A stretch of DNA of 64,000 nt from an uncultured Chitinophagales bacterium (GCA_964422925.1 CAYRDC010000006.1:8854-72853), one strand, 5' to 3'; counted from the first letter of the stretch, positions 412 through 36,622 are shown. Numbers and translations are program-made. Notes: generated from the sequence alone by a model not told the origin.

Positions 412-801
412 ATGAAAAGATTACTTTATTTACTCCTTATTGCCCCTATGCTTTTACCATCCTGCCGTAAAGCGCCCGGACCGGGAGGGACCTCCTCTAT
501 TACAGGAAAAGTGTATGTTAAAGATTACAACGCAAACGGTACGGTATTGCTGGGCGAGTATTACGGTCCGGAAATCAAAGTTTATATTATTTACGGTGAC
601 CATCAGGTATATGATGACTGGATGCGGACCAATTATGACGGGGCATACTTGTTCGATTACCTGAACCCGGGTTCTTACACGGTTTTCACTTATTCCAGGT
701 GTGATTCCTGCCCCAGCGGTGTGGAACCAGTAAAAACAACGGTTCAGATCACAGGTGCTCACCAAGTGGTTGAAGTACCGGACCTTGTAATAAAAAACTG
801 A
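412..801 (+). CDS. small lipoprotein with CarboxypepD_reg-like beta-sandwich pattern
   Basis: Signal peptide ending in a lipobox-like LLPSC. The GKVY...DGAYLFDYLNPGSYTV pattern is typical of carboxypeptidase-regulatory-like folds. The stop lies 3 nt before the next start. Confidence 0.6.
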   Translation: MKRLLYLLLIAPMLLPSCRKAPGPGGTSSITGKVYVKDYNANGTVLLGEYYGPEIKVYIIYGDHQVYDDWMRTNYDGAYLFDYLNPGSYTVFTYSRCDSCPSGVEPVKTTVQITGAHQVVEVPDLVIKN

Positions 802-804
802 TTC

Positions 805-1578
805 TTGAAAGACCTTGGACATATATTGCAACAGTTTGACCCTATCACCCTGAAGGAGATGGATGCGGTTTCATTGATGAACCGCCATGATTCCAAGTTT
901 GTCTTTCACAGGAATTTACTGTTGTCTGTACTGGAAGAACTGCAATCTGATTACAGAATCCTCGAAGTAAAAGGAAACCGGTTAAGCCGGTACGAAACCA
1001 TTTACTTTGACACGGAAGATTTCCTGTTTTACCACTTGCATCATAACGGGAAGCGCAACCGGCTCAAAGTCCGGATAAGGCAATATGTAGATATCGGACT
1101 GACCTTTATGGAAATCAAGAAGAAGAATAACAAATCAAGAACGGTTAAAAAAAGGATAAAAGTCGGCAAGCTTAGTCAGCAGTTTGACCAGCAAGGGCTG
1201 GCTTTGCTTAAGGCCTATACCGACCTCGACCCTAAATCCATCCGTCCAACCCTTCACGTAAATTTCAAACGGATTACCTTGGTTTGCAGGGATATGAGCG
1301 AAAGGTTGACCATTGACATAGACTTGGTTACTTCCAATTCTACCCGGCAAAAAGATTTCCGCAATATTGTGATTGCAGAGGTAAAACAGGATGGCAAGAA
1401 TTTACATTCGCCTTTTTTCAAGGTAATGCGCAAGTACCGGATTCATGAAAACCGGTTCAGCAAGTATTGCATGGGCATTATCTATACCCATCCGGGAATA
1501 AAGATCAACCGGTTTAAACCAAGGATTCTAAAATTAAACAAGATCACGAATGGAACATTTGGCTTACGAAGTGCTTAA
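805..1578 (+). CDS. VTC domain-containing protein (triphosphate-tunnel, polyphosphate-polymerase-like)
   Basis: TTG start directly after the upstream stop. Alternating charged beta-strand motifs of a tunnel fold are present: RYETIYFDT, RLKVRIRQY, FMEIKKK, RLTIDIDL, VIAEVKQ. Confidence 0.75.
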   Translation: MKDLGHILQQFDPITLKEMDAVSLMNRHDSKFVFHRNLLLSVLEELQSDYRILEVKGNRLSRYETIYFDTEDFLFYHLHHNGKRNRLKVRIRQYVDIGLTFMEIKKKNNKSRTVKKRIKVGKLSQQFDQQGLALLKAYTDLDPKSIRPTLHVNFKRITLVCRDMSERLTIDIDLVTSNSTRQKDFRNIVIAEVKQDGKNLHSPFFKVMRKYRIHENRFSKYCMGIIYTHPGIKINRFKPRILKLNKITNGTFGLRSA

Positions 1579-2260
1579 CCTGCCTGTTCTGGCGGTAAAA
1601 TTTCTGGGTATAAAGCTATATGATAAAGATTTGTGGGAGTTGATTCTCAGATTTTCCTTCAACCTGTTGGTCACTGCTATCATCATCCGGGGGATTTACT
1701 TTCGCTATCGTAAAGACAGCGAATACTATTTCGCATATTTCATGTTCAGCATTATTATTTTCTTTGTTATTTTTCTTTTAAATAATGTAAAACTAAGTAT
1801 TGGCTTTGCCTTTGGCTTGTTTGCTGTTTTTGCCATTCTTCGTTACCGCACCGCCACCATTCCAATCCGTGAAATGACTTACCTGTTTGTGGTAATTACA
1901 GTGGCCTTGCTTAATGCATTGGCCAATAAAAAAGTAACCTACGCGGAATTGTTGTTCACTAACCTGGCTATCGTGTCGGCTATCTACCTAATGGAAAAGG
2001 CCAATTTCCGCAAGCAAATGATGTCGATGTACGTCAATTATGAAAAAATCGAAAACATTAAACCCCAACGGCATCAGGAATTGCTCAAAGACCTGAAAGA
2101 AAGGACCGGGCTTGACATTGTACGATTAGATATTCTCAGAGTGAATTTTATGACGGATACCGCCCGCATTAAAATATTCTATAAATCGGGCAGTAGTTCT
2201 ACGTTCCTCACCGATAATGAAGTACAGGACCTGAATTATGATTCGGAAGATAACGGCTAG
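1550..2260 (+). CDS. DUF4956-like multi-pass membrane protein
   Basis: Overlaps the VTC gene by 29 nt. It has several hydrophobic helices followed by a soluble tail (IENIKPQRHQELLKDLKERTGLDIVRLDI). It matches my recollection of DUF4956, the usual partner of bacterial VTC genes. Confidence 0.65.
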   Translation: MEHLAYEVLNLPVLAVKFLGIKLYDKDLWELILRFSFNLLVTAIIIRGIYFRYRKDSEYYFAYFMFSIIIFFVIFLLNNVKLSIGFAFGLFAVFAILRYRTATIPIREMTYLFVVITVALLNALANKKVTYAELLFTNLAIVSAIYLMEKANFRKQMMSMYVNYEKIENIKPQRHQELLKDLKERTGLDIVRLDILRVNFMTDTARIKIFYKSGSSSTFLTDNEVQDLNYDSEDNG

Positions 2261-2885
2261 CCTTTGGGTTTTGGTGGTATGGCTTTTATTCCCTTCCCTG
2301 GTCCGCGCCCAAACGAGTGATGTGGAAACATGGGCAGGGACTGTAGTAATATTTGATTTGCCAAAGGGCTTTGATATATCCATGGAAGAGCAACTGAGGC
2401 TAAATCAGAATGCTTCCAGTCTGAAATCTTTACTGACTGAAGTGGAAGCGGGATGGAAAATGAACAAGTATCTGAGTTTCGGAGCCTCCTACCGATTTGT
2501 TTACCGCCCGACCTTTAACAGGAACCGCTACAGCCTGATTACGAAGCAGCGCTACCGTTCCAAACCTTTTACTTTCAAAAACCGGATCAAATACGAATAT
2601 GAAACCGAAGTGGCCCATACACCCGGCAGCCGGATCAGGGACCGGATAGCTATTGACTGGAAAACAAGCAAATTACTGACGCTGAGCATTAATAATGAAT
2701 GGTTTTACCCGCTCGGGGCCAAAGGCGGTTTTTTCGACCAGTACCGTATCGGGGCCAGGGTTGATTTCAAGCTTAACAAGAGAAACCATATCCGGGCAGG
2801 CTATATCTATGAGCAGCAGATTCAGCAGCCCAATCCCGCCACTTCCCATATTTTCCGGGTACGGTACCTGGTGACCCTGTTTTAA
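2238..2885 (+). CDS. DUF2490-like predicted outer-membrane beta-barrel protein
   Basis: Overlaps the upstream gene by 23 nt. It has a signal peptide (LFPSLVRAQ), alternating amphipathic strands and a terminal aromatic residue (VTLF). Confidence 0.5.
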   Translation: MIRKITASLWVLVVWLLFPSLVRAQTSDVETWAGTVVIFDLPKGFDISMEEQLRLNQNASSLKSLLTEVEAGWKMNKYLSFGASYRFVYRPTFNRNRYSLITKQRYRSKPFTFKNRIKYEYETEVAHTPGSRIRDRIAIDWKTSKLLTLSINNEWFYPLGAKGGFFDQYRIGARVDFKLNKRNHIRAGYIYEQQIQQPNPATSHIFRVRYLVTLF

Positions 2886-2886
2886 C

Positions 2887-4305
2887 TTACCGGACGATCA
2901 GGGGCCGGATGCTGGTCCTGTCAGCACTTTGAAACCGGACCAGGTAGTATCCTGAGGCAAATCCATCGAGCGGAAAGAGGAATTGTTGTTCTCCCCCAGA
3001 CAAACGGCCCGTGGCGATTGTATTCCCCTCCAAATCAGTAAGTGTAAGAAAAACAGGAGCGGTTGCGGGATGGTCCAGGACAATCCTGGCAGATGCTGAA
3101 GCCGGATTCGGGTAAATTCGCCAATCCGGATTTTCTGAAATATCCGTTATACCAACCAATGGATTAATGGTAAAATGCCGGGTATAGGTCTTCCCGTTAT
3201 AATCCGCCTCAAAGGTCCACTGCCCAGTGGGTTCTCCCGTTCCGGCTACCATCCACCAATAAGCATAAGCGGCCACATAAAACGGCCAGGGTGAATTCCA
3301 TGACCAGGTGTTCCATACCGAATTGTTCGGCCTCCGGATGGTAATATTGACCAGGTCATTGGTATTCAAATTCCGGAAATGGATATCGAGGTAAATGGTA
3401 TCCAGGGGTGAAAACGCGCCTTTTTCGTGAGGGATCTCCTGGGCCGGGCAAGCCGGAATTTCAGGGGGCGCGTAACCGGTAGCCAGGCGATTGATGCCTT
3501 TTTCCAGGTAAGGGAGCTGGTTGTTCCACCAGCTTGAATTGTTGAATATGTTGCATGAGCCGTAAAACGGATCAATCAATCGCTGGGAAGCATCGTACAC
3601 TTCAAAATGCAAGTGAGGACCCGTGCTGTTGCCGGAGGAGCCGGCAATACCCAAGTATTCCCCGGCATTTACCGACTGTCCCACCCCTTTGGAAGTCAGA
3701 CTACCGTTTTTCATATGGCCGTACCAGGCTATGGAACCATCACTGTGTTGAATATAGACAGCATTCCACAGGTTGTTGTTAGTGGTACAGCTGTGGTCAT
3801 ATTCTCCATCATTTTTGTACAGGACCACCCCGGGAGCAGCTGCTACCACCTCCACATAGCCGGAATCCATTTTCAACCACGGATAAGGCCAAAGGTAAAA
3901 ATCCGTACCCCGGTGATTATAGCCATTCTGTGTATCGTAGGTAAGCTGTCCGCAATGGTAATCCAACAGATGATTCGGGTAGGTGGTGTCATTATCGACA
4001 TATCCTGTAATGGTGAAAAAACCGGGATCAGACAATCCGCTTTTTAACCGGAGCGGTAAATTGAACAAAACCTGCAGCGTTCCATCCGCGGCAGGCAGGA
4101 GCCCTTCCGATTGTAACATCTCCCGGTTTCGGTTAATCTGCTCCCAAATCATGACCCGCTGTTCGGGTGTCGGGCCGTCCGGCCCCGGAACAGGAGCCGG
4201 CCGGAACACAGGTTCCGGGCCGGAAAAATCCGGTGAAACATTTTGTCCGTTAACAACAAAACCGGCTGCCAATAAGCAGGTGATAGTTATTAAAATCTGT
4301 TTCAT
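2887..4305 (-). CDS. M23/LytM family metallopeptidase with T9SS type A C-terminal sorting domain
   Basis: Signal peptide. M23 signature region NHRGTDF ... GNSTGPHLHFEVY. The last ~80 aa (IYPNPASASARIVL...GYYLVRFQSADRTSIRPLIVR) look like a Por/T9SS type A CTD. Confidence 0.85.
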   Translation of the reverse strand: MKQILITITCLLAAGFVVNGQNVSPDFSGPEPVFRPAPVPGPDGPTPEQRVMIWEQINRNREMLQSEGLLPAADGTLQVLFNLPLRLKSGLSDPGFFTITGYVDNDTTYPNHLLDYHCGQLTYDTQNGYNHRGTDFYLWPYPWLKMDSGYVEVVAAAPGVVLYKNDGEYDHSCTTNNNLWNAVYIQHSDGSIAWYGHMKNGSLTSKGVGQSVNAGEYLGIAGSSGNSTGPHLHFEVYDASQRLIDPFYGSCNIFNNSSWWNNQLPYLEKGINRLATGYAPPEIPACPAQEIPHEKGAFSPLDTIYLDIHFRNLNTNDLVNITIRRPNNSVWNTWSWNSPWPFYVAAYAYWWMVAGTGEPTGQWTFEADYNGKTYTRHFTINPLVGITDISENPDWRIYPNPASASARIVLDHPATAPVFLTLTDLEGNTIATGRLSGGEQQFLFPLDGFASGYYLVRFQSADRTSIRPLIVR

Positions 4306-4349: not shown

Positions 4350-6260
4350 TCAAACCGGATCGGTCATGGCCCCACCCGGGTAAATCTGTTGCCGGTACTT
4401 CCGGCTGGGGGATTCAATCAAAGGCCCCAGCCCCAGGGTGGGCCACTTGGCATCCACGCTGTCCATGGTTTCCATATCGGCACAAATAATATTGGGCCAG
4501 TCCCTGTCAAACCCATCGTCTTTCCGGGTTTTCCGGGTTCCGTCAATGCCCGCGTGCGAAGGCCCTGTGCCATCGGAAGGAACCAGGAAAACATCCCGGC
4601 CGGGATCCATGTTGTTGGTAACCCGCCAAATTATATCGTGCAGGCTGCCGATATCGGTGACCGGTTCGCAATATAAAATCCATTTGACCAGTCTGAGCCC
4701 GTCCAAGCGGAACAGCCGCTCGTTCAAATGGCGGATAAAGCCGGGGCCCGATTTTTCGACTGCCACGGCCACCACAGAAATGCCCCGGGCGAGCAGCGAG
4801 TCGTTATGGCCGGTAATAGCCGGAAAATCTTTCTTCACCTGGTCCCAGTCAATCCGGATTTCCCGTGGATCGGGATTCACTGCCCCGCCAGGCCGTATTT
4901 CTTCCGGGAGTTTTTTCGTGGCGTCAATAAACATTTTACCACCAAAGGCAAAGTGGCTGCAACTGTGATCCAGCACATCCATTGGGCCCTTGCCGAAAAT
5001 GATATCCGAGGCAGGGTTTACATTTTCAGATACATGCCGGGCCAGGGCCTCGTAATCATGAATATTCAACCCATCGTCCACCGCAACCAGTATCTTGTTA
5101 AACATCATCTGCCCGGCTCCCCACATGGCATTCTTTACCTTATAGGCATGTCCGGGATATTCTTTTTTCAGGCTGGTTATCGTAAGATTGTGGAACACTC
5201 CTTCCACGGGCATATCCATGTCGGATAATTCCGGGAGCAATGTCATGCGGATCGGTGCCAGGAAAATCCGTTCGGTGGCTTTCCCGATCCAGGCGTCTTC
5301 CTGGGGTGGTATGCCTACGATGGTGGAGGGATAGATCGCCTCTCTCCGGTGCGTGACGGCTGTGACATGAAACCGCGGGTAATAATCGGCCAGGCTGTAA
5401 TAGCCTGTATGGTCTCCGAACGGGCCTTCCAGGATCAGCTCTTCTTCCGGGTCAACATAACCTTCAATGATGATATCGGCTTCAGCCGGGACCCAGATAT
5501 CCTGGGTGAGGCATTTGACAAGCTCCACTCTTTTTTTCCGGATGAACCCGGCCAGGATGTATTCATCCACATTGGGCGGCAGGGGCGCGGTGGCGCTGTA
5601 TGCCAGTACCGGGTCTCCTCCCAGGGCAACGGCCACCGGCATTTTTTTGCCCAGTTGCTGAAATTTCCTGAAATGCCCGGCTGACACTTTGTGCTTATGC
5701 CAGTGCATTCCCGTCAGGTCCGGGCCAAAAACCTGCATCCGGTACATGCCCACGTTCCGGGTACCCGTTTCCGGGTCCTGCGTGTGAATGACCGGCAGGG
5801 TAATGAACGGCCCGCCATCTTGGGGCCAGCAGGTCATTACAGGAAAACGGGTGAGGTCTGGCGGGTCCATCACCACCTGCTGGCACGCGCCCCGTCCTTT
5901 GCGCTTCCTGGGCATCCAGGAGGCAATACGCCCAAGCCGGGGTAACATTCTTAACTGATCCATAATCTGGCTGCCCGGCTTCATAAACACCTGGAAAAGC
6001 GACTCCACCTCACGGGCAATATCATCCAGGTTTTCAACCCCGAGGGCCAGGCACATCCTACGGTAGGAACCCAACGCATTGATCAGGAGCGGGAATTCCG
6101 TACCGGTATTTTCGAACAGCAGGGCCGGGCCATTGCTCTTGGATACACGGTCTGTGATATCCGCAATTTCCAGGTGGGGATTAACGTATTCATGGATCCT
6201 TACCAATTCCCCCGCTTCTTCCAGGGCTTGTACAAATGCATGCAGGCTGCTGTAAGCCAT
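4350..6260 (-). CDS. UbiD family decarboxylase (menaquinone/ubiquinone-type prenylated-FMN decarboxylase)
   Basis: UbiD-like sequence throughout (VFGPDLTGMHWHKHK, GPFGDHTGYY). I prefer the ATG at 6260 (MAYSSLHAFVQALEEAGELVRI) over the track start at 6302, which abuts the upstream terminator. Confidence 0.85.
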   Translation of the reverse strand: MAYSSLHAFVQALEEAGELVRIHEYVNPHLEIADITDRVSKSNGPALLFENTGTEFPLLINALGSYRRMCLALGVENLDDIAREVESLFQVFMKPGSQIMDQLRMLPRLGRIASWMPRKRKGRGACQQVVMDPPDLTRFPVMTCWPQDGGPFITLPVIHTQDPETGTRNVGMYRMQVFGPDLTGMHWHKHKVSAGHFRKFQQLGKKMPVAVALGGDPVLAYSATAPLPPNVDEYILAGFIRKKRVELVKCLTQDIWVPAEADIIIEGYVDPEEELILEGPFGDHTGYYSLADYYPRFHVTAVTHRREAIYPSTIVGIPPQEDAWIGKATERIFLAPIRMTLLPELSDMDMPVEGVFHNLTITSLKKEYPGHAYKVKNAMWGAGQMMFNKILVAVDDGLNIHDYEALARHVSENVNPASDIIFGKGPMDVLDHSCSHFAFGGKMFIDATKKLPEEIRPGGAVNPDPREIRIDWDQVKKDFPAITGHNDSLLARGISVVAVAVEKSGPGFIRHLNERLFRLDGLRLVKWILYCEPVTDIGSLHDIIWRVTNNMDPGRDVFLVPSDGTGPSHAGIDGTRKTRKDDGFDRDWPNIICADMETMDSVDAKWPTLGLGPLIESPSRKYRQQIYPGGAMTDPV

Positions 6261-6304
6261 ATCGGAGCTTTGCCATAAAATTAAGAAAGCGTTTGCTTGC
6301 AAGC

Positions 6305-6336
6305 AGAAAAAAAGGGGGCTGCCATCGACAGCCCCG
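6305..6336 (-). terminator. rho-independent terminator after the barrel gene
   Basis: On the minus strand: GGGGCTG-TCGATGG-CAGCCCC, a perfect 7-bp stem (6315-6335), followed by CTTTTTTTCTG. Confidence 0.6.
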
Positions 6337-6358
6337 GGACACTGACATGATCCAATAA

Positions 6359-7858
6359 CTAAAACCGGAGACCAAAAGTGAACAAAATATTGGAGGAAGC
6401 ATTGGTTAAAACGGCTCCTCCGACTGTTTCATTTGGATCGCTTAGTGTGTAAGGCACATCCATTGAAGTGGAACTGGCGCTCACGTAGGTCAGGTCCATA
6501 AAATAGTTCTTGTCGTGTAAACCGCCTCCGAGTGAGAAAGCAGCCCGGCTCAGGTCAGCATCCTGAACCGCCACGCCCGGCTGGAACGGAGAACCGGAAT
6601 AATTTATTCCACCCCGGATGATGAAAACCCCGAACCGGTATTCTCCGCCAAGCCGGAGGGATCCCGAGGGGCCGTATTTGTCACGGATGGTTTGGTTCAG
6701 CTGGCTTTCAAAGGCCTGTTCTGAAGTGGCAAACCCGAAAAAGGTATTGCTGTAATCCAGCCATTCGTAATCGACCGAAATCAAGCCTCTGGTTTTAAAC
6801 AAAACGGCCCCGCTGATCACAGCTCGCCAGGGGGTAGTCAGGTTGTACTTGAAAGTGCCGTCCGGGCTGTCCCATTGGTAATTGCCCGTACTCTCCAAGT
6901 CAGAACTCATGGTAGAGGAATAATCGTCCCGCAGGGAAAGGAAGGAAGGACTGTGCAATGCACCGCCTACGCGGATATAGGGCGTAATGCGGTAAATCAG
7001 CCCAAGCCGGAAGTTAACCCCTGAGCCAGTTGTTTTCAGGTAGTCGGTTTTCGTAAAACTTTTGAATCCCGCAATGGTATCATTTACATCCTCTTCATGA
7101 TAAGAAGATTCTTCCGTATACCGAATCCGGGGCATCCCGATCGTAACACCGATTTGTATCTTGTTGTCATAATTACCAGCAATCGAAAAAAGATATTCAT
7201 CAAAACCGCCCCGGGTTGAAATTTTACGCGATTGCTCCACCCCGCCATACGGTACTTTGGATGCATAATGCATGGTATCGGTCAGGATGGGATCTATCAG
7301 GTAGGTTTGGTAAGCCAGCCCCGCGTCAAAGGGGTAGCGGTCGGTTATTTCCGATGGAGCCACCCCGCTGCCGCTGTTGGCAATTTCCAGAAACTTGTCG
7401 ATCATCGAATTATCCGGGTTGAAGCCGTTGTAATAAACATCCCGGTTGTAATTGGCCAGGCGGTTGATCCCAAAGGCATAGCTCACCGATTTCCAGCCCG
7501 GGACTTCCTCCCCGTTAACCCGTTTGCTGTAGGTATTGGTAATTACCATCCCCAGGTTGCTGATATTGAAATTGTATTTAAGGTCAGTTTGCGGATTATC
7601 CCAGAAGCTGGATTGTGTACTGGCCGTAAAGATTGAAGGGGTTATCATGATTTCCGATTTACGGTAGGTGGCCAAGCCGGCAGGATTGGTAATAATAGCC
7701 CCAAAATCGCCTCCCAGAGCTCCCATGGCGCCACCCAGCCCGGTAAACCGGGCTGTGCCCCAATAATCCTGCATCGAATATCTCAAGGCATCCACATCAC
7801 TTTGCCCATAGGACTGGAAGGACACAAAAAGGGCTGTGAGGAAGAAAATTTTCTTCAT
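6359..7858 (-). CDS. FadL/TodX/PorV-like outer-membrane beta-barrel protein
   Basis: Signal peptide (FQSYGQ). The N-terminal motif GTARFTGLGGAMGALGGDFGAIITNPAGLA is typical of this barrel family. The protein ends FGLRF. It starts 23 nt after the upstream gene. Confidence 0.65.
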   Translation of the reverse strand: MKKIFFLTALFVSFQSYGQSDVDALRYSMQDYWGTARFTGLGGAMGALGGDFGAIITNPAGLATYRKSEIMITPSIFTASTQSSFWDNPQTDLKYNFNISNLGMVITNTYSKRVNGEEVPGWKSVSYAFGINRLANYNRDVYYNGFNPDNSMIDKFLEIANSGSGVAPSEITDRYPFDAGLAYQTYLIDPILTDTMHYASKVPYGGVEQSRKISTRGGFDEYLFSIAGNYDNKIQIGVTIGMPRIRYTEESSYHEEDVNDTIAGFKSFTKTDYLKTTGSGVNFRLGLIYRITPYIRVGGALHSPSFLSLRDDYSSTMSSDLESTGNYQWDSPDGTFKYNLTTPWRAVISGAVLFKTRGLISVDYEWLDYSNTFFGFATSEQAFESQLNQTIRDKYGPSGSLRLGGEYRFGVFIIRGGINYSGSPFQPGVAVQDADLSRAAFSLGGGLHDKNYFMDLTYVSASSTSMDVPYTLSDPNETVGGAVLTNASSNILFTFGLRF

Positions 7859-7881: not shown

Positions 7882-9444
7882 TTATCGCGGGGTTCTTCCG
7901 GAAGAGCCACTGCTTCGTCCGCTGCTCCTGGATCCTCCTGACCGGGAACCGGATGAATAGGATCCTGAATGCGATCCCCGGCTATACGATCCGGAACCGG
8001 AATGATAACTCCGGCCTCCTGAACTGCGGCTATATCCCTGGTTACCCGAAGAATGGTTGCCGCGTCCGCTGTAAGAGGATGAAGAACCGCGAGACCGGCT
8101 CCTTGACCCGGAATTCCGGGAATATGACCTGGAATTGCTGTTACCTTTCGAATAACTCCGGCTATTTTGATGTTTGTTGGACCCCCGGTAACCTGACGAC
8201 CGGTTCTCACTGGAATTATTTCTCACCCGCGGAGGTCGGGATTGATTCCGCGGAGTTTGGTTTTGTTGATTTGTCCTTGGACCCGGTTGGCTGCTCCGGG
8301 GCGGGTTATAATTATGCCGGTCATTACCCTGTGCGGGAGTGCTGTATGAATTCCGGCCCGGTTGGTTGATGCGGTTCCTGTCATCCGGAATTCGGTCAGC
8401 CGGTTTTTCATTGGTACGCACCGGTTGGGAAATATGGTGATCGTTGTCAGGTTCCCCGAGCGGTTTATTCATTTCCGAGGTGGAAAGATGCTCATTCCGG
8501 CCCTCGGTACGGTTATATTCTGTCTGATTCCTGAATTCCCGGTTGGTGGAAGACGGATCGGTACCTGTTCCATTCGTGTTTCCATTTACTACGCCTTCCC
8601 GCACATTGCCTGAAGCATTTTCAAACGGATCTGCACTTCCGCCCTTTTCCATAATCCCTGAACGGCCAGCCCCGATATCTGACTGGCTGCCACCGGAAGT
8701 TTTTCCATATTTAATCTGCGATTGCCCCGTAGTTCTTCCCCCTCCGGTATTGGATCCTAATGAATGACGTGGTCCGTAATAAGTATTTCCGGGTGTTGAA
8801 GTAGTGTTATAATAGCTCCAATTGTAGTTCCCATATCCTGAATTGTAATATCCGTCCCAGTAACCATTGTTATATCCATTCCAATATCCCCAGCCATAGG
8901 AATAATAGGGTGAATACCAAGGGTAATAATAGGAGCTGTACCATCCATAATCATACCATGGCGAGTACCAACCGCCATAATAAGGATAATACCAGCTATA
9001 ATAATATGGTCTGTAATACCACGGTGTGCCCCAGCCGATATAAATGTTCCATCCTGAATACCAGGGATCGTAAGTGTACCAGTAATAATCCGTATAGCAG
9101 CCGCTGTAAAAACTGAATCCTACATAAGGCCTGTGGAACCTGCGGATCCGGGAAGTGTAGTAGAAGTCATAATCATCAAACCAGTCGTCATCGTCATAAT
9201 CGTAATAATTCTCAATGTATGTGTCGCCACCGCCTTGATACGTGTCATCCGCGTCATAATAATCACCAGTCGCATCGGATTCCACAACATCCAGATCATC
9301 TGTAATCACTACATCATCTGCTATATTTTCGTCCGGCACATAATATACATCATCGTAATAAACAGTGCGCCCCTGGTAATAAGTGGTTGTACAGGCGCTG
9401 GTCAGCAGAAGTGCGAGGGCTGAAAGGTAATAAATGGTTTTCAT
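7882..9444 (-). CDS. low-complexity lipoprotein (acidic/Tyr block, Tyr/Trp block, polar linker, Ser/Arg/Gly tail)
   Basis: Uninterrupted 520-codon ORF. It has a signal peptide plus Cys (LLLTSAC). It is the first gene of a two-gene unit closed by a terminator. Competing plus-strand ORFs are short low-complexity mirrors. Confidence 0.7.
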   Translation of the reverse strand: MKTIYYLSALALLLTSACTTTYYQGRTVYYDDVYYVPDENIADDVVITDDLDVVESDATGDYYDADDTYQGGGDTYIENYYDYDDDDWFDDYDFYYTSRIRRFHRPYVGFSFYSGCYTDYYWYTYDPWYSGWNIYIGWGTPWYYRPYYYSWYYPYYGGWYSPWYDYGWYSSYYYPWYSPYYSYGWGYWNGYNNGYWDGYYNSGYGNYNWSYYNTTSTPGNTYYGPRHSLGSNTGGGRTTGQSQIKYGKTSGGSQSDIGAGRSGIMEKGGSADPFENASGNVREGVVNGNTNGTGTDPSSTNREFRNQTEYNRTEGRNEHLSTSEMNKPLGEPDNDHHISQPVRTNEKPADRIPDDRNRINQPGRNSYSTPAQGNDRHNYNPPRSSQPGPRTNQQNQTPRNQSRPPRVRNNSSENRSSGYRGSNKHQNSRSYSKGNSNSRSYSRNSGSRSRSRGSSSSYSGRGNHSSGNQGYSRSSGGRSYHSGSGSYSRGSHSGSYSSGSRSGGSRSSGRSSGSSGRTPR

Positions 9445-31537: not shown

Positions 31538-31900
31538 GGAATTACTGATTGTAATGGGGGCGGTGGCAATTCAGTCCTCACCATTTCTAACAATATATTT
31601 TCTACATCACCTTCCGATACCATCAAAAATAAGATTCTCTGGCCTTCGCAAATAATTAGCGGATATTTTGCCGTCTGTCTATAAACAGATTTTTACCTCC
31701 TATTATATATTTAATTGGTTTTTACCTGTCGGACAGCCATCAGAATATCCACAGCAATGAAACACTTAATACACTTTCGGTTTTTTAGATCTGCTTCACC
31801 TTTTCTCGAAAAAGCAACACTGACTCAGTGTGCCATTAACAAAATCTTTATTATTTTTAATCATTAAGTTCCAACCCCTAACTAGCTGCACCTCATTAAT

Positions 31901-34900
31901 ATGAAAAAAATATTCCTGATCCTTCCGTTGCTGTTGCTTCCTCATTTTCTCCTTTCGCAAACTCCATTTATTCGAATTTTTGGTGGACCTGGAACCGATA
32001 TCGGCAATGGAGTGATTCAGGCCTATGATGGCGGATATTGGGTAGTTGGCAGAACTAATTCTTTTGGCGCTGGTGGAACGGATATCATTGTTCTGAAATT
32101 AAACACATCCGGGGTAATTGAATGGGAAAAAACCTATGGCGGTGTGAACAATGAAGGAGGAATCTATGGTGTTTTTGCCACGGAAACCCAAGACCACGGA
32201 CTGGCTGTTGCCTGTGAAACCAAGAGCTTCAATGCCACGCAAAATGATGCATATCTGATCAAAATTGACAGTGTTGGCAATGTACTTTGGGATGCAAGAT
32301 ACGATGCCGGACCCGGAACTTCAGGAGGTGATTACTTCCGGGGCATTAAAGAATTAAGCACAGGAGAACTGCTGTTGACTGGCTCAATCAACAGTGGAGT
32401 TCTTGGACTCTCAGATGCTTTAATCATGAAATTCACTGCATCAGGCAATCTGATATGGAAGAAAATTATTGGCGGTATTTACGTAGATCACATCTACGAT
32501 GTGATCGAATTACCCAATGGCGATTACGCCTTTTTCGGTAATACAGGCACATGGGGCAACGGCTCAAACAATGCCTGGGTTATTAGAACAGATACAAGTG
32601 CAAATCTGGGCTGGGCGAAAGTTTATGCAGGGTCAGGAATTGATAACTTTTCAGAAGGAATACTGACTTCTGACGGTGGATTATTGCTGGGAGGCATTAC
32701 TTCTTCCTACGGTTCCGGGAATTTCGACATTTATCTTGTCAAACTTAGCATTGACGGTACGCTTCAATGGGCAAAAACCTATGGTGGATCAAATCTCGAA
32801 TGGCTGAATGGATTGCAGGAGCTACCTTCGGGCGGGTACTTGTTGAGAGTATATTCAAAATCGTATGGGCCCGGTGAGGATATTTTGCTAATCAGCATCG
32901 ACACTACCGGCAATATTACCTGGAGCAAATCCTATAAAATAATTCAAAGTGGTAGTTCAGGATCCCTGGTAAAAATCAAAGGTGCAATCGATGTAACCAA
33001 TGATGGAGGGTTTATTTTCACCGGATGGGTTATTGACAGCAGTGGATTTGGCGGAAAGGATATCCTTGTATTCAAGTCAGATTCGAGTGCTTATGCTTTG
33101 TGCGACACAGTACTTGTCACAAGCACAACACCGACCGTGCAACCTATTAATGCAAGTCCTTCTTTTACCAATGTAGGGGCAATTCATGATCCATTGACAA
33201 TACATACTTCTCCGACAGTATCCGACACAGCCTCTTGTCCGTGTTTTCAGGTTTCCTCTGCTTTAATCTCCAACGACACCACCATTTGCCAGGGAGACAG
33301 CATTCCTTTGCAGGCTACCGGAGGAACAACTTACAATTGGTCGCCTGCATCGGGATTAAGTTGCAACACTTGCTCCAACCCGGTGGCCAGCCCAAATGTC
33401 ACCACCACCTACACAGTTACCTTTGACCAGGGGCAGGTTTGCGAATCCCAGGACAGCATCACAGTATTTGTACACGTGCCTCCTTCCATCAACTTGGGGG
33501 CTGACACCACCATTTGCTCTTACGACCAGCTCGTACTGGATGCCGGAACGGGTTTTTCCTCTTACCTCTGGGAAGACTCATCCACCACCCAGACGCATAC
33601 CGTGTCGTGGTCCGGTGATACTACAATGATGTTTTATGTAACTGCTACGGATTCCATCGGATGTGCTTCCGCTGATACCATACTGGTCACTTTTGACAAG
33701 CCACCGGTTATTGACCTCGGGCCTGATACCTTGCTGTGTGCGGGCACTCAGTATCTGCTGGATGCGGGACCGGGGTTTGCCAGCTATGTCTGGCAGGATA
33801 AATCAAGCGGGCAGACCTACATGGCTTCCGCGCTGAACGATACGACCATTTTATACACAGTTACCGGAAAGGATTATATAGGTTGTATTTCTTCCGATTC
33901 TGTTTGGATCACCTTTCACAAGCCACCTGTCATCCAACTCGGGCCCGACACGGTGATTTGTTCCGGTGCACAACTGTTGCTGGATGCCGGGCCGGGATTT
34001 GTTTCCTACCTGTGGGAAGACCAATCGACCGGGCAAATCCATATCGTTTCCGCATCCAACGATACTTCCCTGCTATATTACGTGACCGGTACTGATTCGC
34101 AGGGATGCGTTTCTTCGGATACCATCCAGGTTGGATTCCATGTTCCGCCAGCCATAGACCTGGGGCCTGATACTTTGCTTTGCCAGGCTGACACAATACT
34201 GCTGGATGCCGGGCCCGGGTTTACCACATACCTTTGGGAAGACCAGTCAACCGGGCAAACACACCTGGTGTCCAGCACAGCCGACACCGTGCTTCTGTAT
34301 CATGTGACTGCCACGGATAGCCTCGGCTGCACATCTGCAGATTCCATCAGCATTCACTTTCACAATACCCCGTCAATCGACCTCGGGCCCGACACCGTAT
34401 TGTGCGATGGTGGTCAAATCCTGCTGGATGCCGGGCCGGGGTTCAGCCAATACACCTGGCAGGATCAGTCCAGCGGGCAGTTTTTCACCGCTTCAGCCTC
34501 TGGTGACACTACCATCCTGTTTTATGTGACTGCCACGGATAGTCTCGGCTGTACTTCTGCCGACAGTATTGAAGTTTACTTCCATCTTCTTACAGCCATT
34601 CATCTCGGGAATGACACCCTGCTTTGTGCCGGTGAACAATTGCTGCTGGATGCCGGGCCGGGGTTCGCTTCATATGTTTGGGAAGACCAGTCCACCGGGC
34701 AAACCCATATCGCTTCCGCGTCAAACGATACCTCCCTGCTATATTACGTGACCGGTACTGATACGCAGGGATGCGTTTCTTCGGATACTATCCAGGTTGG
34801 ATTCCACGTTCCGCCCGCCATAAACCTGGGGCCTGATACTTTGCTTTGCCAGGCTGACACAATACTGCTGGATGCCGGGCCCGGGTTTACCACATACCTT

Positions 34901-36622
34901 TGGGAAGACCAGTCAACCGGGCAAACACACCTGGTGTCCAGCACAGCCGACACCGTGCTTCTGTATCATGTGACTGCCACGGATAGCCTCGGCTGCACAT
35001 CTGCAGATTCCATCAGCATTCACTTTCACAATACCCCGTCAATCGACCTCGGGCCCGACACCGTATTGTGCGATGGTGGTCAAATCCTGCTGGATGCCGG
35101 GCCGGGGTTCAGCCAATACACCTGGCAGGATCAGTCCAGCGGGCAGTTTTTCACAACTACGGCCACTGGCGACACTTCCATCCTGTATTTTGTTACCGCC
35201 ATGGACAGCCTCGGCTGTACCGCTGCCGACAGTATAGAAGTTCACTTCCATCTTCTTACTGCCATTCATCTCGGGAATGATACCCTGCTGTGTGCCGGTG
35301 AACAATTGCTGCTGGATGCCGGGTCGGGGTTTACTTCTTATGTCTGGGAAGACCAGGCCACCGGGCAAACCCATATTGCCTCGGTTACAGGCGATACCAC
35401 CATGGTTTATTTCGTGATAGCCACAGATTCCGTGGGATGCCAGTCATCAGACACCATCCAGGTCAGCTTCCACCAGGCGCCTGTAATTGACCTCGGGCCC
35501 GACACAACAGCCTGTGCATTGGGGCAGCTGGTATTGGACGCGGGGCCCGGGTTTGTATCTTACGTATGGGAGCACCAGTCCACCGGGCAAACGCATACCG
35601 TGTCAGGACAAAACGGCACCACCAGCACTTATTATGTAACCGCACTGGACTCTTTCGGATGCCTGTCCACAGACACCATTACTGTTTCTTACCTGACCGC
35701 TATCCCGATTAACCTGGGCCCGGACACAATCGTTTGCGGAAACGCTCAATTACTGCTCGATGCCGGACCTGGATTTGCTTCCTACATCTGGGAGGATCAA
35801 TCCACCGGGCAAACGCATCTCGCATACGGTCAGCCCGGAACCATTAACACATATTACGTGACCGCCACTACCCAGGACGGATGCGTGTCAACCGATACCA
35901 TTGTGGTGGAATTCATGGATTACTTATCCATTCACCTGGGACCGGACACCACCATTTGTGAGAACACCCACTTCTACCTGAACGCGGGACCCGGGTTTGT
36001 CTCCTATGTCTGGAATGACCAGACCACCGGGCAAAAGCATCTCGTTACAGGTCAGGGGGGAACTACCACTTTCTATTCTGTGCATGCCATCGATCCAAAT
36101 GGCTGCGAGGCATCAGACAGTATCCTGATTCATTTTCTGACAGTGAATGAAGTCGACCTCGGCCCCGATACCACGATTTGCAATAATGCCTCTTTGGTAC
36201 TGGATGCCGGGCCGGGTTACACGGCCTACCATTGGTCAAACGGAAGCCAGGCCCAGACCATCACCTTCCAGGACACGCTGGGCACCTACACCGTGTACGT
36301 GGATGTGATTGACTCCAACGGCTGCGCGTCTTCCGATACCATTGTGATTACGGTTGACCGTTGCATCGGCCTGGAAACCCCTGCCCTGAACCCGCTGCTT
36401 GACATTTATCCGAACCCGGCTGAAAACCTTCTGTACATCCGGACCGGACGGCCCTGCCGGCTGGAGGTCTGCAATGCCCTCGGGGAAACCGTCCTTCCGC
36501 CTGTTGAACTGGCCGCTGGAACCCGCCAGATGGATATTTCAATGCTGCCGGCCGGCATGTACCTGCTCCGGTTCTCCGGCAAACGGTTCAATGCCACGCA
36601 CAAGCTCATCAAGGAAAAATAA
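31901..36622 (+). CDS. 1573-aa secreted repeat protein (putative adhesin) with T9SS type A C-terminal sorting domain
   Basis: Signal peptide. About 7-8 propeller-like ~50-aa repeats (WEKTYGG, WAKTYGG, WSKSYK) lie in aa 20-440. One divergent unit plus 13 regular 74-aa Cys-pair repeats follow. The last ~75 aa (LDIYPNPAENLLYIRT...GMYLLRFSGKRFNATHKLIKEK) form a type A CTD. Confidence 0.9.
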   Translation: MKKIFLILPLLLLPHFLLSQTPFIRIFGGPGTDIGNGVIQAYDGGYWVVGRTNSFGAGGTDIIVLKLNTSGVIEWEKTYGGVNNEGGIYGVFATETQDHGLAVACETKSFNATQNDAYLIKIDSVGNVLWDARYDAGPGTSGGDYFRGIKELSTGELLLTGSINSGVLGLSDALIMKFTASGNLIWKKIIGGIYVDHIYDVIELPNGDYAFFGNTGTWGNGSNNAWVIRTDTSANLGWAKVYAGSGIDNFSEGILTSDGGLLLGGITSSYGSGNFDIYLVKLSIDGTLQWAKTYGGSNLEWLNGLQELPSGGYLLRVYSKSYGPGEDILLISIDTTGNITWSKSYKIIQSGSSGSLVKIKGAIDVTNDGGFIFTGWVIDSSGFGGKDILVFKSDSSAYALCDTVLVTSTTPTVQPINASPSFTNVGAIHDPLTIHTSPTVSDTASCPCFQVSSALISNDTTICQGDSIPLQATGGTTYNWSPASGLSCNTCSNPVASPNVTTTYTVTFDQGQVCESQDSITVFVHVPPSINLGADTTICSYDQLVLDAGTGFSSYLWEDSSTTQTHTVSWSGDTTMMFYVTATDSIGCASADTILVTFDKPPVIDLGPDTLLCAGTQYLLDAGPGFASYVWQDKSSGQTYMASALNDTTILYTVTGKDYIGCISSDSVWITFHKPPVIQLGPDTVICSGAQLLLDAGPGFVSYLWEDQSTGQIHIVSASNDTSLLYYVTGTDSQGCVSSDTIQVGFHVPPAIDLGPDTLLCQADTILLDAGPGFTTYLWEDQSTGQTHLVSSTADTVLLYHVTATDSLGCTSADSISIHFHNTPSIDLGPDTVLCDGGQILLDAGPGFSQYTWQDQSSGQFFTASASGDTTILFYVTATDSLGCTSADSIEVYFHLLTAIHLGNDTLLCAGEQLLLDAGPGFASYVWEDQSTGQTHIASASNDTSLLYYVTGTDTQGCVSSDTIQVGFHVPPAINLGPDTLLCQADTILLDAGPGFTTYLWEDQSTGQTHLVSSTADTVLLYHVTATDSLGCTSADSISIHFHNTPSIDLGPDTVLCDGGQILLDAGPGFSQYTWQDQSSGQFFTTTATGDTSILYFVTAMDSLGCTAADSIEVHFHLLTAIHLGNDTLLCAGEQLLLDAGSGFTSYVWEDQATGQTHIASVTGDTTMVYFVIATDSVGCQSSDTIQVSFHQAPVIDLGPDTTACALGQLVLDAGPGFVSYVWEHQSTGQTHTVSGQNGTTSTYYVTALDSFGCLSTDTITVSYLTAIPINLGPDTIVCGNAQLLLDAGPGFASYIWEDQSTGQTHLAYGQPGTINTYYVTATTQDGCVSTDTIVVEFMDYLSIHLGPDTTICENTHFYLNAGPGFVSYVWNDQTTGQKHLVTGQGGTTTFYSVHAIDPNGCEASDSILIHFLTVNEVDLGPDTTICNNASLVLDAGPGYTAYHWSNGSQAQTITFQDTLGTYTVYVDVIDSNGCASSDTIVITVDRCIGLETPALNPLLDIYPNPAENLLYIRTGRPCRLEVCNALGETVLPPVELAAGTRQMDISMLPAGMYLLRFSGKRFNATHKLIKEK
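33480..36360 (+). repeat. 13 tandem 222-bp (74-codon) coding repeats
   Basis: Each unit reads roughly I-D-L-G-P-D-T-x-x-C-x(4)-L-L-D-A-G-P-G-F-x-S-Y-x-W-E-D-Q-S-T-G-Q-T-H ... Y-Y-V-T-x-T-D-S-x-G-C-x-S-x-D-T-I-x-V-x-F. The period was counted from the translation. Confidence 0.85.
34070..35386 (+). repeat. higher-order 666-bp (three-unit) tandem duplication inside the repeat array
   Basis: 34158-34488 is base-for-base identical to 34824-35154 (331 bp, compared line by line). The flanks diverge gradually. Antisense shadow ORFs 34078-34287 and 34744-34953 are near-identical for the same reason. Confidence 0.9.

Follow-up and report, generated by a model that had tools for sequence, protein, structure and literature searches.

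A Chitinophagales operon pairing a VTC-family tunnel enzyme with a DUF4956 membrane protein: a candidate envelope-spanning system for polyphosphate synthesis and export

In yeast, the tunnel domain of Vtc4 is the polyphosphate (polyP) polymerase, and it threads the chain through the membrane subunits of the VTC complex. In bacteria, PPK1 and PPK2 are to our knowledge the sole accepted polyP synthases, and we know of no explanation for the route by which bacterial polyP reaches the periplasm or the cell surface. The present analysis concerns a four-gene operon at positions 412-2885 of a 64,000-nucleotide stretch of DNA, hereafter the window, from an uncultured Chitinophagales bacterium (GCA_964422925.1, CAYRDC010000006.1:8854-72853). 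The operon encodes a lipoprotein, a VTC-family tunnel enzyme, a DUF4956 membrane protein and a DUF2490 protein that is predicted to form an outer-membrane barrel. Our favoured reading, held tentatively and with somewhat less than even confidence, is that it specifies an envelope-spanning, VTC-like system which makes polyP and exports it from the cytoplasm.

The pair formed by the enzyme and the DUF4956 protein has been met before in Gram-positive bacteria, where genes for CotH, a “polyphosphate polymerase” and DUF4956 lie beside pel operons (Whitfield et al., bioRxiv 10.1101/768473; PMC12345266), in clusters for which no DUF2490 is listed. In Streptococcus intermedius the trio corresponds to SIR_1594-1592; deletion of the DUF4956 and CotH genes causes modest phenotypes and shifts Pel levels in opposite directions (PMC12345266). 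The published work states that the arrangement is not found outside pel loci and puts forward no translocation role for DUF4956. Already known, then, are the Gram-positive trio, from two papers, and the database label “polyphosphate polymerase domain-containing protein”. The diderm form with DUF2490 and a lipoprotein, the other barrels that take part, the arginine-rich character of the barrel, the inversion of gene order across phyla and the CotH partners secreted by the type IX secretion system (T9SS) are not in the searchable papers. A preliminary description of the operon had held that no bacterial VTC/DUF4956 pair was characterised. This stands in so far as the searchable literature contains no biochemistry, but it has to be amended for the pair beside Gram-positive pel genes, which was already described and for which deletion mutants were made.

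All four genes lie on the plus strand: gene 1 at 412-801 (129 aa), gene 2 at 805-1578 (257 aa), gene 3 at 1550-2260 (236 aa) and gene 4 at 2238-2885 (215 aa), with ATG starts except for the TTG of gene 2. The packing is exactly as first described, with a gap of 3 nt (802-804) followed by overlaps of 29 nt (1550-1578) and 23 nt (2238-2260). The gap hinges on the TTG start at 805, whereas the Joint Genome Institute gene call on the source contig begins gene 2 at an ATG at 859 and gives it 239 aa. The start at 805 is accepted because homologues keep residues 1-18 (L8, I14 and M19 in at least 90 %, L16 invariant) and the AlphaFold2 model shows this segment to be structured. The four-gene arrangement is well beyond chance, its identical order being found in dozens of independent genomes.

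Gene 2, the putative synthase, matches Pfam VTC (PF09359; E 2.7e-27, 96.3 bits against a cut-off of 23, profile positions 1-233 of 235) and not the generic CYTH family. The protein consists of the VTC domain only, with neither an SPX nor a transmembrane (TM) domain, so that the soluble tunnel protein and the multi-pass membrane protein are indeed separate. Its AlphaFold2 model, built with 39 homologues as input (predicted local distance difference test score (pLDDT) 93.6, predicted TM-score 0.90), folds as a closed beta-barrel tunnel, and the nearest solved structure is of the Vtc4 type. In a Foldseek search of the PDB with this model, the top 13 matches are all tunnel domains of yeast Vtc4, Vtc3 or Vtc2 (E 3e-13 to 1e-10, TM-score about 0.59). 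Hydrolytic triphosphate tunnel metalloenzymes (TTMs) rank below, with the tripolyphosphatase YgiF at 5.7e-9 and other CYTH proteins weaker still. A single-sequence search of the PDB with the VTC protein gave nothing relevant, and a search with the VTC profile gave weak matches to Vtc2 (E 1.6e-3) and Vtc4 (E 0.014).

Profile alignment places the basic and acidic residues of the Vtc4 tunnel one by one in gene 2: R27 and K31 correspond to R196 and K200 of Vtc4, R90 and R92 to R264 and R266, E103 and K105 to E279 and K281, R156 to R361, R167 to R373 and D171 to D377, while F154 stands where Vtc4 has Y359. In an alignment that takes in Bacteroidota, Deinococcota, Alphaproteobacteria and Actinomycetota, these equivalents are invariant except for K31, which is kept in at least 90 %. 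E192, K194 and K220 are invariant in that alignment as well, and S219 is a further invariant position. The pair R264/R266 forms part of the standard inactive yeast mutant of Vtc4, R264A/R266A/E426N (PMC9911596). The gene 2 protein carries a net charge of +24. Taken with the fold, this residue pattern suggests a polymerase rather than a hydrolase.

Gene 3 matches DUF4956 (PF16316, E 1.4e-49) and is predicted to encode an inner-membrane protein with a cytoplasmic ACT-like domain and four TM helices, or five if the first hydrophobic helix also crosses the membrane. Its AlphaFold2 model (pLDDT 80) comprises an N-terminal helix, five hydrophobic helices (residues 28-149 approximately) and a C-terminal beta-alpha-beta-beta ACT-like domain; this C-terminal part alone resembles ACT/ferredoxin-like domains in Foldseek. 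Segments rich in lysine and arginine at residues 47-58, 98-108 (with the invariant LRYRT, which contains R98 and R100) and 150-160 probably mark the cytoplasmic face, on which the ACT-like domain would lie too. The invariant core of the family reads GFAFGLFA..LRYRT..P..EMTYLF. DUF4956 is a large family, since its profile reaches 2,156 clusters at 50 % identity. A relationship with MgtC (PF02308) was considered but gained no support: none of 40 DUF4956 members matches it in Pfam at E<=5, and hhalign against E. coli YhiD returned a probability of 0.2 %, although with a single-sequence template this is a weak test.

The gene neighbourhood is conserved well outside the source genome. With a DUF4956 alignment as query, one genome per species was scanned. 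This gave 80 loci, nearly all from Bacteroidota plus Neomarinimicrobiota, to which the source contig was added to make 81. VTC lies immediately upstream of DUF4956 in 76 of the 81, and DUF2490 follows or stands next to the pair in about 68. In a collection of plasmids and chromids, DUF4956 adjoins VTC in 16 of the 17 records that bear a VTC gene. The pair extends beyond Bacteroidota to Deinococcota, Alpha- and Gammaproteobacteria and Actinomycetota. VTC precedes DUF4956 in Deinococcus, whereas the order is reversed in Aminobacter, Shinella, Nitratireductor, Nonomuraea and Streptomyces; in all of these but Shinella both the adjacency and the overlap were seen to survive the inversion. Adjacency that outlasts gene-order inversion across phyla suggests that the VTC and DUF4956 proteins are coupled in function and probably also physically.

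The product of gene 4 belongs to DUF2490 (PF10677, E 1.4e-22), a family classified as a putative porin, TC 1.B.81 in the transporter classification (PMC4827864). It has a Sec-type signal (…LVRA/QT), amphipathic strands and a terminal phenylalanine, which is also the last residue in 22 of 60 orthologues, and the literature predicts an outer-membrane beta-barrel for the family. Among 60 operon-linked DUF2490 proteins the conserved columns are chiefly arginines (R54, R86, R97, R116, R134, R136 and R170), with K77 and K181 in addition, acidic columns being limited to D28, E68 and E154. The conserved arginines sit on the polar face of the amphipathic strands, and the mature protein has a net charge of +13.

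Gene 1 begins with a lipoprotein-type signal, MKRLLYLLLIAPMLLPSC, including a lipobox-like LPSC with Cys18. Pfam detects in it a weak SdrD_B or transthyretin-like beta-sandwich (E 4e-5, under the cut-off), and longer orthologues match CarboxypepD_reg, fn3_3, SpaA and NOMO transthyretin-like domains. The protein is thus predicted to be a small periplasmic lipoprotein with a single transthyretin/CarboxypepD_reg-like beta-sandwich. NCBIfam holds no model for any of the four operon proteins. A lipoprotein gene lies upstream of VTC at 36 of the 81 loci, with a recognisable lipobox in 20 of these 36. At 18 loci a further secreted protein of about 145 aa is encoded between the lipoprotein and VTC (for example L017 4791-5234 and L064 4597-5031); it has a Sec signal and no Pfam family, and the window operon lacks it. 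The family assignments, the signal peptide and barrel-like family of gene 4 and the lipoprotein nature of gene 1 all agree with the preliminary description. However, its picture of one component for each layer of the envelope applies to the Bacteroidota form alone, because the lipoprotein is found at under half of the loci and the versions in Alphaproteobacteria and Deinococcus have no adjoining barrel.

Further evidence for an extracytoplasmic role comes from the partners of the pair in other genomes. CotH kinase genes flank the module at 17-20 of the 81 loci. Their products are secreted, carry T9SS tails or lipoboxes and often contain lamin-tail and carbohydrate-binding domains. In Deinococcus taeanensis the order is CotH-VTC-DUF4956. 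The densest association among the loci examined is that of L093 (4036-11919), which has four tandem CotH copies: a TPR-YaiO outer-membrane barrel directly upstream of VTC, its architecture like that of polymer-export porins, then VTC, an open reading frame (ORF) joining DUF4956 to CotH, and three more CotH paralogues. The CotH-VTC-DUF4956 arrangement therefore does occur outside pel loci, contrary to the published statement. A third type of barrel is found in Pseudoalteromonas, where a phosphate-selective porin O/P (E 2e-47) takes the place of DUF2490 after DUF4956. There, on the chromid of Pseudoalteromonas sp. CuT4-3 (L083 5646-5966), all that is left of VTC is a piece of about 104 aa, which overlaps a protein annotated as having a lamin-tail domain; with DUF4956 and porin O/P intact, this locus may be decaying or remodelled. 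Neither of the two Actinomycetota loci examined has a DUF2490 match beside the pair, although each has one neighbouring ORF without family assignment, and in this they resemble the published Gram-positive clusters. Phosphate genes that neighbour the pair in other phyla, listed below, likewise agree with a polyP system.

Exported partners are also read in one frame with DUF4956. A DUF4956::DUF2490 ORF of 460 aa is represented by 36 sequences from one lineage and many contigs (e.g. protein P0275, L091 6001-7383), and contains an internal Sec signal (…MQRTCVLVALMGLFVTVGYA/QQ) straight after the ACT-like domain. The DUF4956::CotH ORF has a lipobox at the same junction. These internal signals are as expected if DUF4956 ends in the cytoplasm and an exported partner comes next, and they underline tight coupling. 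Given the internal signal peptide, a physical fusion of DUF4956 with DUF2490 was set aside in favour of a read-through ORF, the barrel of which would either be freed from the precursor by signal peptidase or be translated from an internal start. Together, the secreted CotH proteins, the other barrel families, the arginine-rich barrel and the ORFs with internal signals strengthen the case for export, short of proving it.

The mechanism proposed for the Bacteroidota form is as follows. The cytoplasmic tunnel enzyme (gene 2) would extend a polyP chain from ATP in the fashion of Vtc4, while docked on the basic cytoplasmic face of a DUF4956 oligomer (gene 3). This oligomer would pass the chain over the inner membrane, and the arginine-lined DUF2490 barrel (gene 4) would let the chain itself, or phosphate anions that stem from it, through the outer membrane, with the beta-sandwich lipoprotein (gene 1) as a periplasmic accessory. 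Both the translocation of polyP and its direction are what we infer from this ensemble. The comparison with yeast threading, drawn from the start, can be kept as a functional analogy but not as homology, because DUF4956 is not detectably related to the membrane subunits of the yeast VTC complex.

A number of points weigh against this proposal. The searchable literature holds no biochemical characterisation of any bacterial VTC enzyme or VTC/DUF4956 pair, and deletion of the VTC gene in S. intermedius had no aggregation phenotype (PMC12345266). The bacterial motif of the enzyme is R-x-D/E-x-K, as against R-x-T-x-K in Vtc4 and E-x-E-x-K in hydrolases, and because of the D/E at position 29 gene 2 might have a hydrolytic or other TTM activity. 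Its putative match to Vtc4 E426 and S457/K458 comes from Pfam and Foldseek coverage: a profile of the C-terminal 80 residues gave no Vtc4 alignment for these positions, only spurious P230 matches. For the membrane protein, comparison of the DUF4956 model with the PDB by Foldseek found no significant match (best E 0.13), the membrane chains of 7YTJ and 8I6V included, and in Pfam 40 members had no match outside their own family and no detectable Vtc1-type similarity. A channel role of DUF4956 is thus purely conjectural, because it does not detectably resemble Vtc1-type TM subunits, or any solved channel, in sequence or fold. A fused VTC::DUF4956 ORF adds little, because it is a single sequence from one contig and could be an assembly error. 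As to the outer membrane, the DUF2490 barrel is small, at about 190 residues, and its lumen could be closed, because a preprint describes a salt-bridge network buried in a subset of the family's models. No barrel gene adjoins the pair at the alphaproteobacterial and Deinococcus loci examined. Finally, in three complete Bacteroidota loci (L044, L045 and L074, at about 5990-7310) DUF4956-DUF2490 occurs with no VTC within 6 kb upstream.

In one alternative, no conduit for the product exists. Gene 2 would then be a membrane-tethered TTM tripolyphosphatase or polyphosphatase, or a cytoplasmic maker of polyP, DUF4956 would do no more than anchor and regulate it through the ACT-like domain, and the barrel and lipoprotein would be co-regulated, phosphate-related envelope proteins. 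Characterised TTM enzymes are mostly hydrolases; among the structural matches of gene 2, those to YgiF and other CYTH proteins are significant, its D/E at position 29 is reminiscent of the Glu with which hydrolases bind metal, ACT-like folds are typical of small-molecule sensors, and many loci lack the barrel. Moreover, the S. intermedius authors suggested that polyP may stay cytoplasmic (PMC12345266). On the other hand, Vtc4, Vtc3 and Vtc2 clearly outrank the hydrolases and the match is to Pfam VTC rather than CYTH. A tethered or cytoplasmic enzyme would also leave unexplained why outer-membrane barrels of three families lie beside the pair (DUF2490 and porin O/P downstream, TPR-YaiO upstream), why exported partners are read in one ORF with DUF4956 and why secreted CotH kinases accompany the pair. 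We consider this alternative rather unlikely.

The same components could work in the opposite direction, for the uptake of external polyP, pyrophosphate or phosphate: an anion-selective outer-membrane barrel would admit the substrate, DUF4956 would conduct it inward, and the tunnel enzyme would bind and cleave the chain or pull on it. Porin O/P is classically an uptake porin, the DUF2490 barrel is arginine-rich, two-component systems adjoin several loci, and phosphate genes adjoin the pair in other phyla (PiT, a phytase-like esterase, phnDCE and an acid phosphatase). However, the yeast VTC genes belong to the phosphate-starvation regulon although VTC exports polyP from the cytosol, so that a phosphate-gene neighbourhood says nothing on direction. 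Since we know of no precedent for a VTC-family enzyme in import, and secreted kinases and a TPR-barrel of the polymer-export type fit export better, import appears distinctly unlikely. The delivery of some other phosphoanhydride (a nucleotide, tripolyphosphate, or phosphate onto a lipid or glycan carrier) to the surface, for CotH or for modification of an exopolysaccharide such as Pel instead of long-chain polyP, would suit the chemical versatility of the TTM superfamily, the Gram-positive trio attached to pel operons, the opposite changes in Pel levels after DUF4956 and CotH deletion and the carbohydrate-binding-type domains (LTD, CBM-like, F5/8-C, Cthe_2159) of neighbouring secreted proteins, but it has only a slim chance of being right, as the residue pattern is that of Vtc4 and no pel or other glycosyltransferase genes lie near the window operon or most Bacteroidota loci.

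If synthesis and export of polyP is indeed the function, bacteria would possess a second, PPK-independent and vectorial polyP route, a counterpart of the VTC system in the acidocalcisomes or vacuoles of eukaryotes, but with a membrane part that is not homologous. In any case, the family is widespread, spanning several phyla, and joins a Vtc4-like enzyme to a membrane protein of its own, to which diderms add barrels of the anion type. Its repeated association with secreted CotH proteins offers a testable lead on what powers extracellular phosphorylation. A speculative extension, which we regard as quite unlikely, is that exported polyP serves as an extracytoplasmic energy or phosphoryl currency for the accompanying CotH-family kinases; these would use it as direct phosphoryl donor, or attach it to or process it on surface proteins or glycans. 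Such a use, if true, would explain how kinases can work outside the cell, where an ATP pool is absent. Homologues exist in tractable organisms, namely Bacteroides thetaiotaomicron, whose BT3498-99 encode the DUF4956 and DUF2490 proteins; related loci are found in Deinococcus and Streptococcus.

Regulation of the operon may involve its upstream neighbours. The AT-rich intergenic stretch at 280-411, upstream of gene 1, is the likely site of a putative promoter region, which the operon would share with a two-component system transcribed in the opposite direction. On the source contig (L001 1864-3549), beyond the start of the window, a histidine kinase (HisKA_3) and a response regulator of the LuxR type are encoded divergently and directly upstream of the operon. 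The exact Bacteroidota -7 motif TAnnTTTG was not found on the plus strand upstream of gene 1, nor is it enriched across the window. Two-component systems adjoin other VTC-DUF4956 pairs as well, LytS/LytTR in L091 and a HisKA/OmpR-type system in Nonomuraea (L088), and such neighbours may provide dedicated regulation of the module.

Downstream, gene 4 converges with the gene of an M23 peptidase (2887-4305, minus strand) that ends in a sorting domain for type IX secretion; the stop codons are one base apart, which leaves no space for a terminator between the two units. The minus strand then encodes a UbiD-family decarboxylase (4350-6302) that is unusually long at 650 aa, with a C-terminal extension past three UbiD domains, and, adjoining it, a FadL/TodX-like outer-membrane protein (6359-7858). 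Next on the same strand is a 520-aa ORF (7882-9444) of extreme composition with a lipoprotein-type signal (…LLLTSAC): Tyr, Trp and Asp abound in its N-terminal half (YYDYDDDDWFDDYDFYY, WYYRPYYYSWYYPYYGGWY), which is followed by a long tail rich in Ser, Arg, Gly and Asn. Pfam gives no match for it. Within the 64-kb window no CotH gene was found. A CotH call at 31886-36619 (plus strand) was rejected: the hidden Markov model had matched through the sorting tail of a predicted T9SS cargo of 1578 aa with many CHU_C-associated Ig_7 repeats and PKD domains.

Among the relatives, the loci without VTC (L044, L045 and L074) come from Roseivirga-type genomes and a Flavobacteriaceae genome, and a convergent CotH-like gene lies just downstream in L044 and L045. 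In about ten Flavobacteriales loci (e.g. L067 1968-3275, L038 8015-11905), type IX genes for PorV and a C25 peptidase (PorU-like) are found near the module. This proximity may be lineage synteny, or it may reflect a link to T9SS-sorted CotH proteins.

How the operon stands among described systems can now be summarised. The S. intermedius authors remarked on a resemblance between DUF4956 and the MgtC family, which has five TM helices and a C-terminal ACT-like domain (PMC12345266), although in limited tests DUF4956 had no sequence or profile similarity to it. A second comparison is with OprP and OprO (Porin_O_P), porins selective for phosphate and pyrophosphate. A Porin_O_P member occupies the DUF2490 position in Pseudoalteromonas, at the locus with the truncated VTC, and the conserved polar-face arginines of DUF2490 recall the arginine ladder of OprP; however, DUF2490 is a different and far smaller barrel family (about 190 versus about 400 residues). 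Synthase-dependent secretion of exopolymers (Pel, poly-N-acetylglucosamine, cellulose, alginate) offers a similar general layout, with a polymerase at the cytoplasmic face, passage over the inner membrane and an outer-membrane barrel, and the TPR-YaiO protein of L093 adds to the likeness. In contrast to these systems, the polymer would here be inorganic, no protein is homologous to the glycosyltransferase synthases and no cyclic di-GMP receptor is evident.

The Gram-positive pel trio contains the same VTC-DUF4956 pair, and its CotH link recurs in 17-20 of the 81 relatives of the window operon. The latter differs in that it is not located beside pel genes, has no CotH within 64 kb and carries the diderm-specific DUF2490 and lipoprotein genes.

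A further parallel is the VTC complex of yeast and other eukaryotes, in which the catalytic TTM domain of Vtc4 works with the membrane subunits Vtc1 and Vtc3 (PDB 3G3Q, 7YTJ, 8I6V). Gene 2 lacks both the SPX sensor and the attached TM domain, no homology is detectable between DUF4956, with its four to five TM helices and ACT-like domain, and Vtc1-type subunits, which have three TM helices, and the proposed destination is the periplasm or surface, with two membranes on the way, instead of the vacuole. Additional parts of the bacterial form are an outer-membrane barrel and a lipoprotein, joined in many relatives by secreted CotH kinases. The likenesses lie at the core: gene 2 shares its Pfam family with the yeast enzyme, finds its nearest folds in Vtc4, Vtc3 and Vtc2 and keeps the basic tunnel residues, and in both systems a genetic link joins the enzyme to a small membrane protein that makes several passes and is basic on its cytoplasmic side. 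In yeast, a positive belt leads from the tunnel exit of Vtc4 to the entrance of the channel (PMC9911596); the invariant R98 and R100 and the lysine- and arginine-rich cytoplasmic loops of DUF4956 would provide its parallel.

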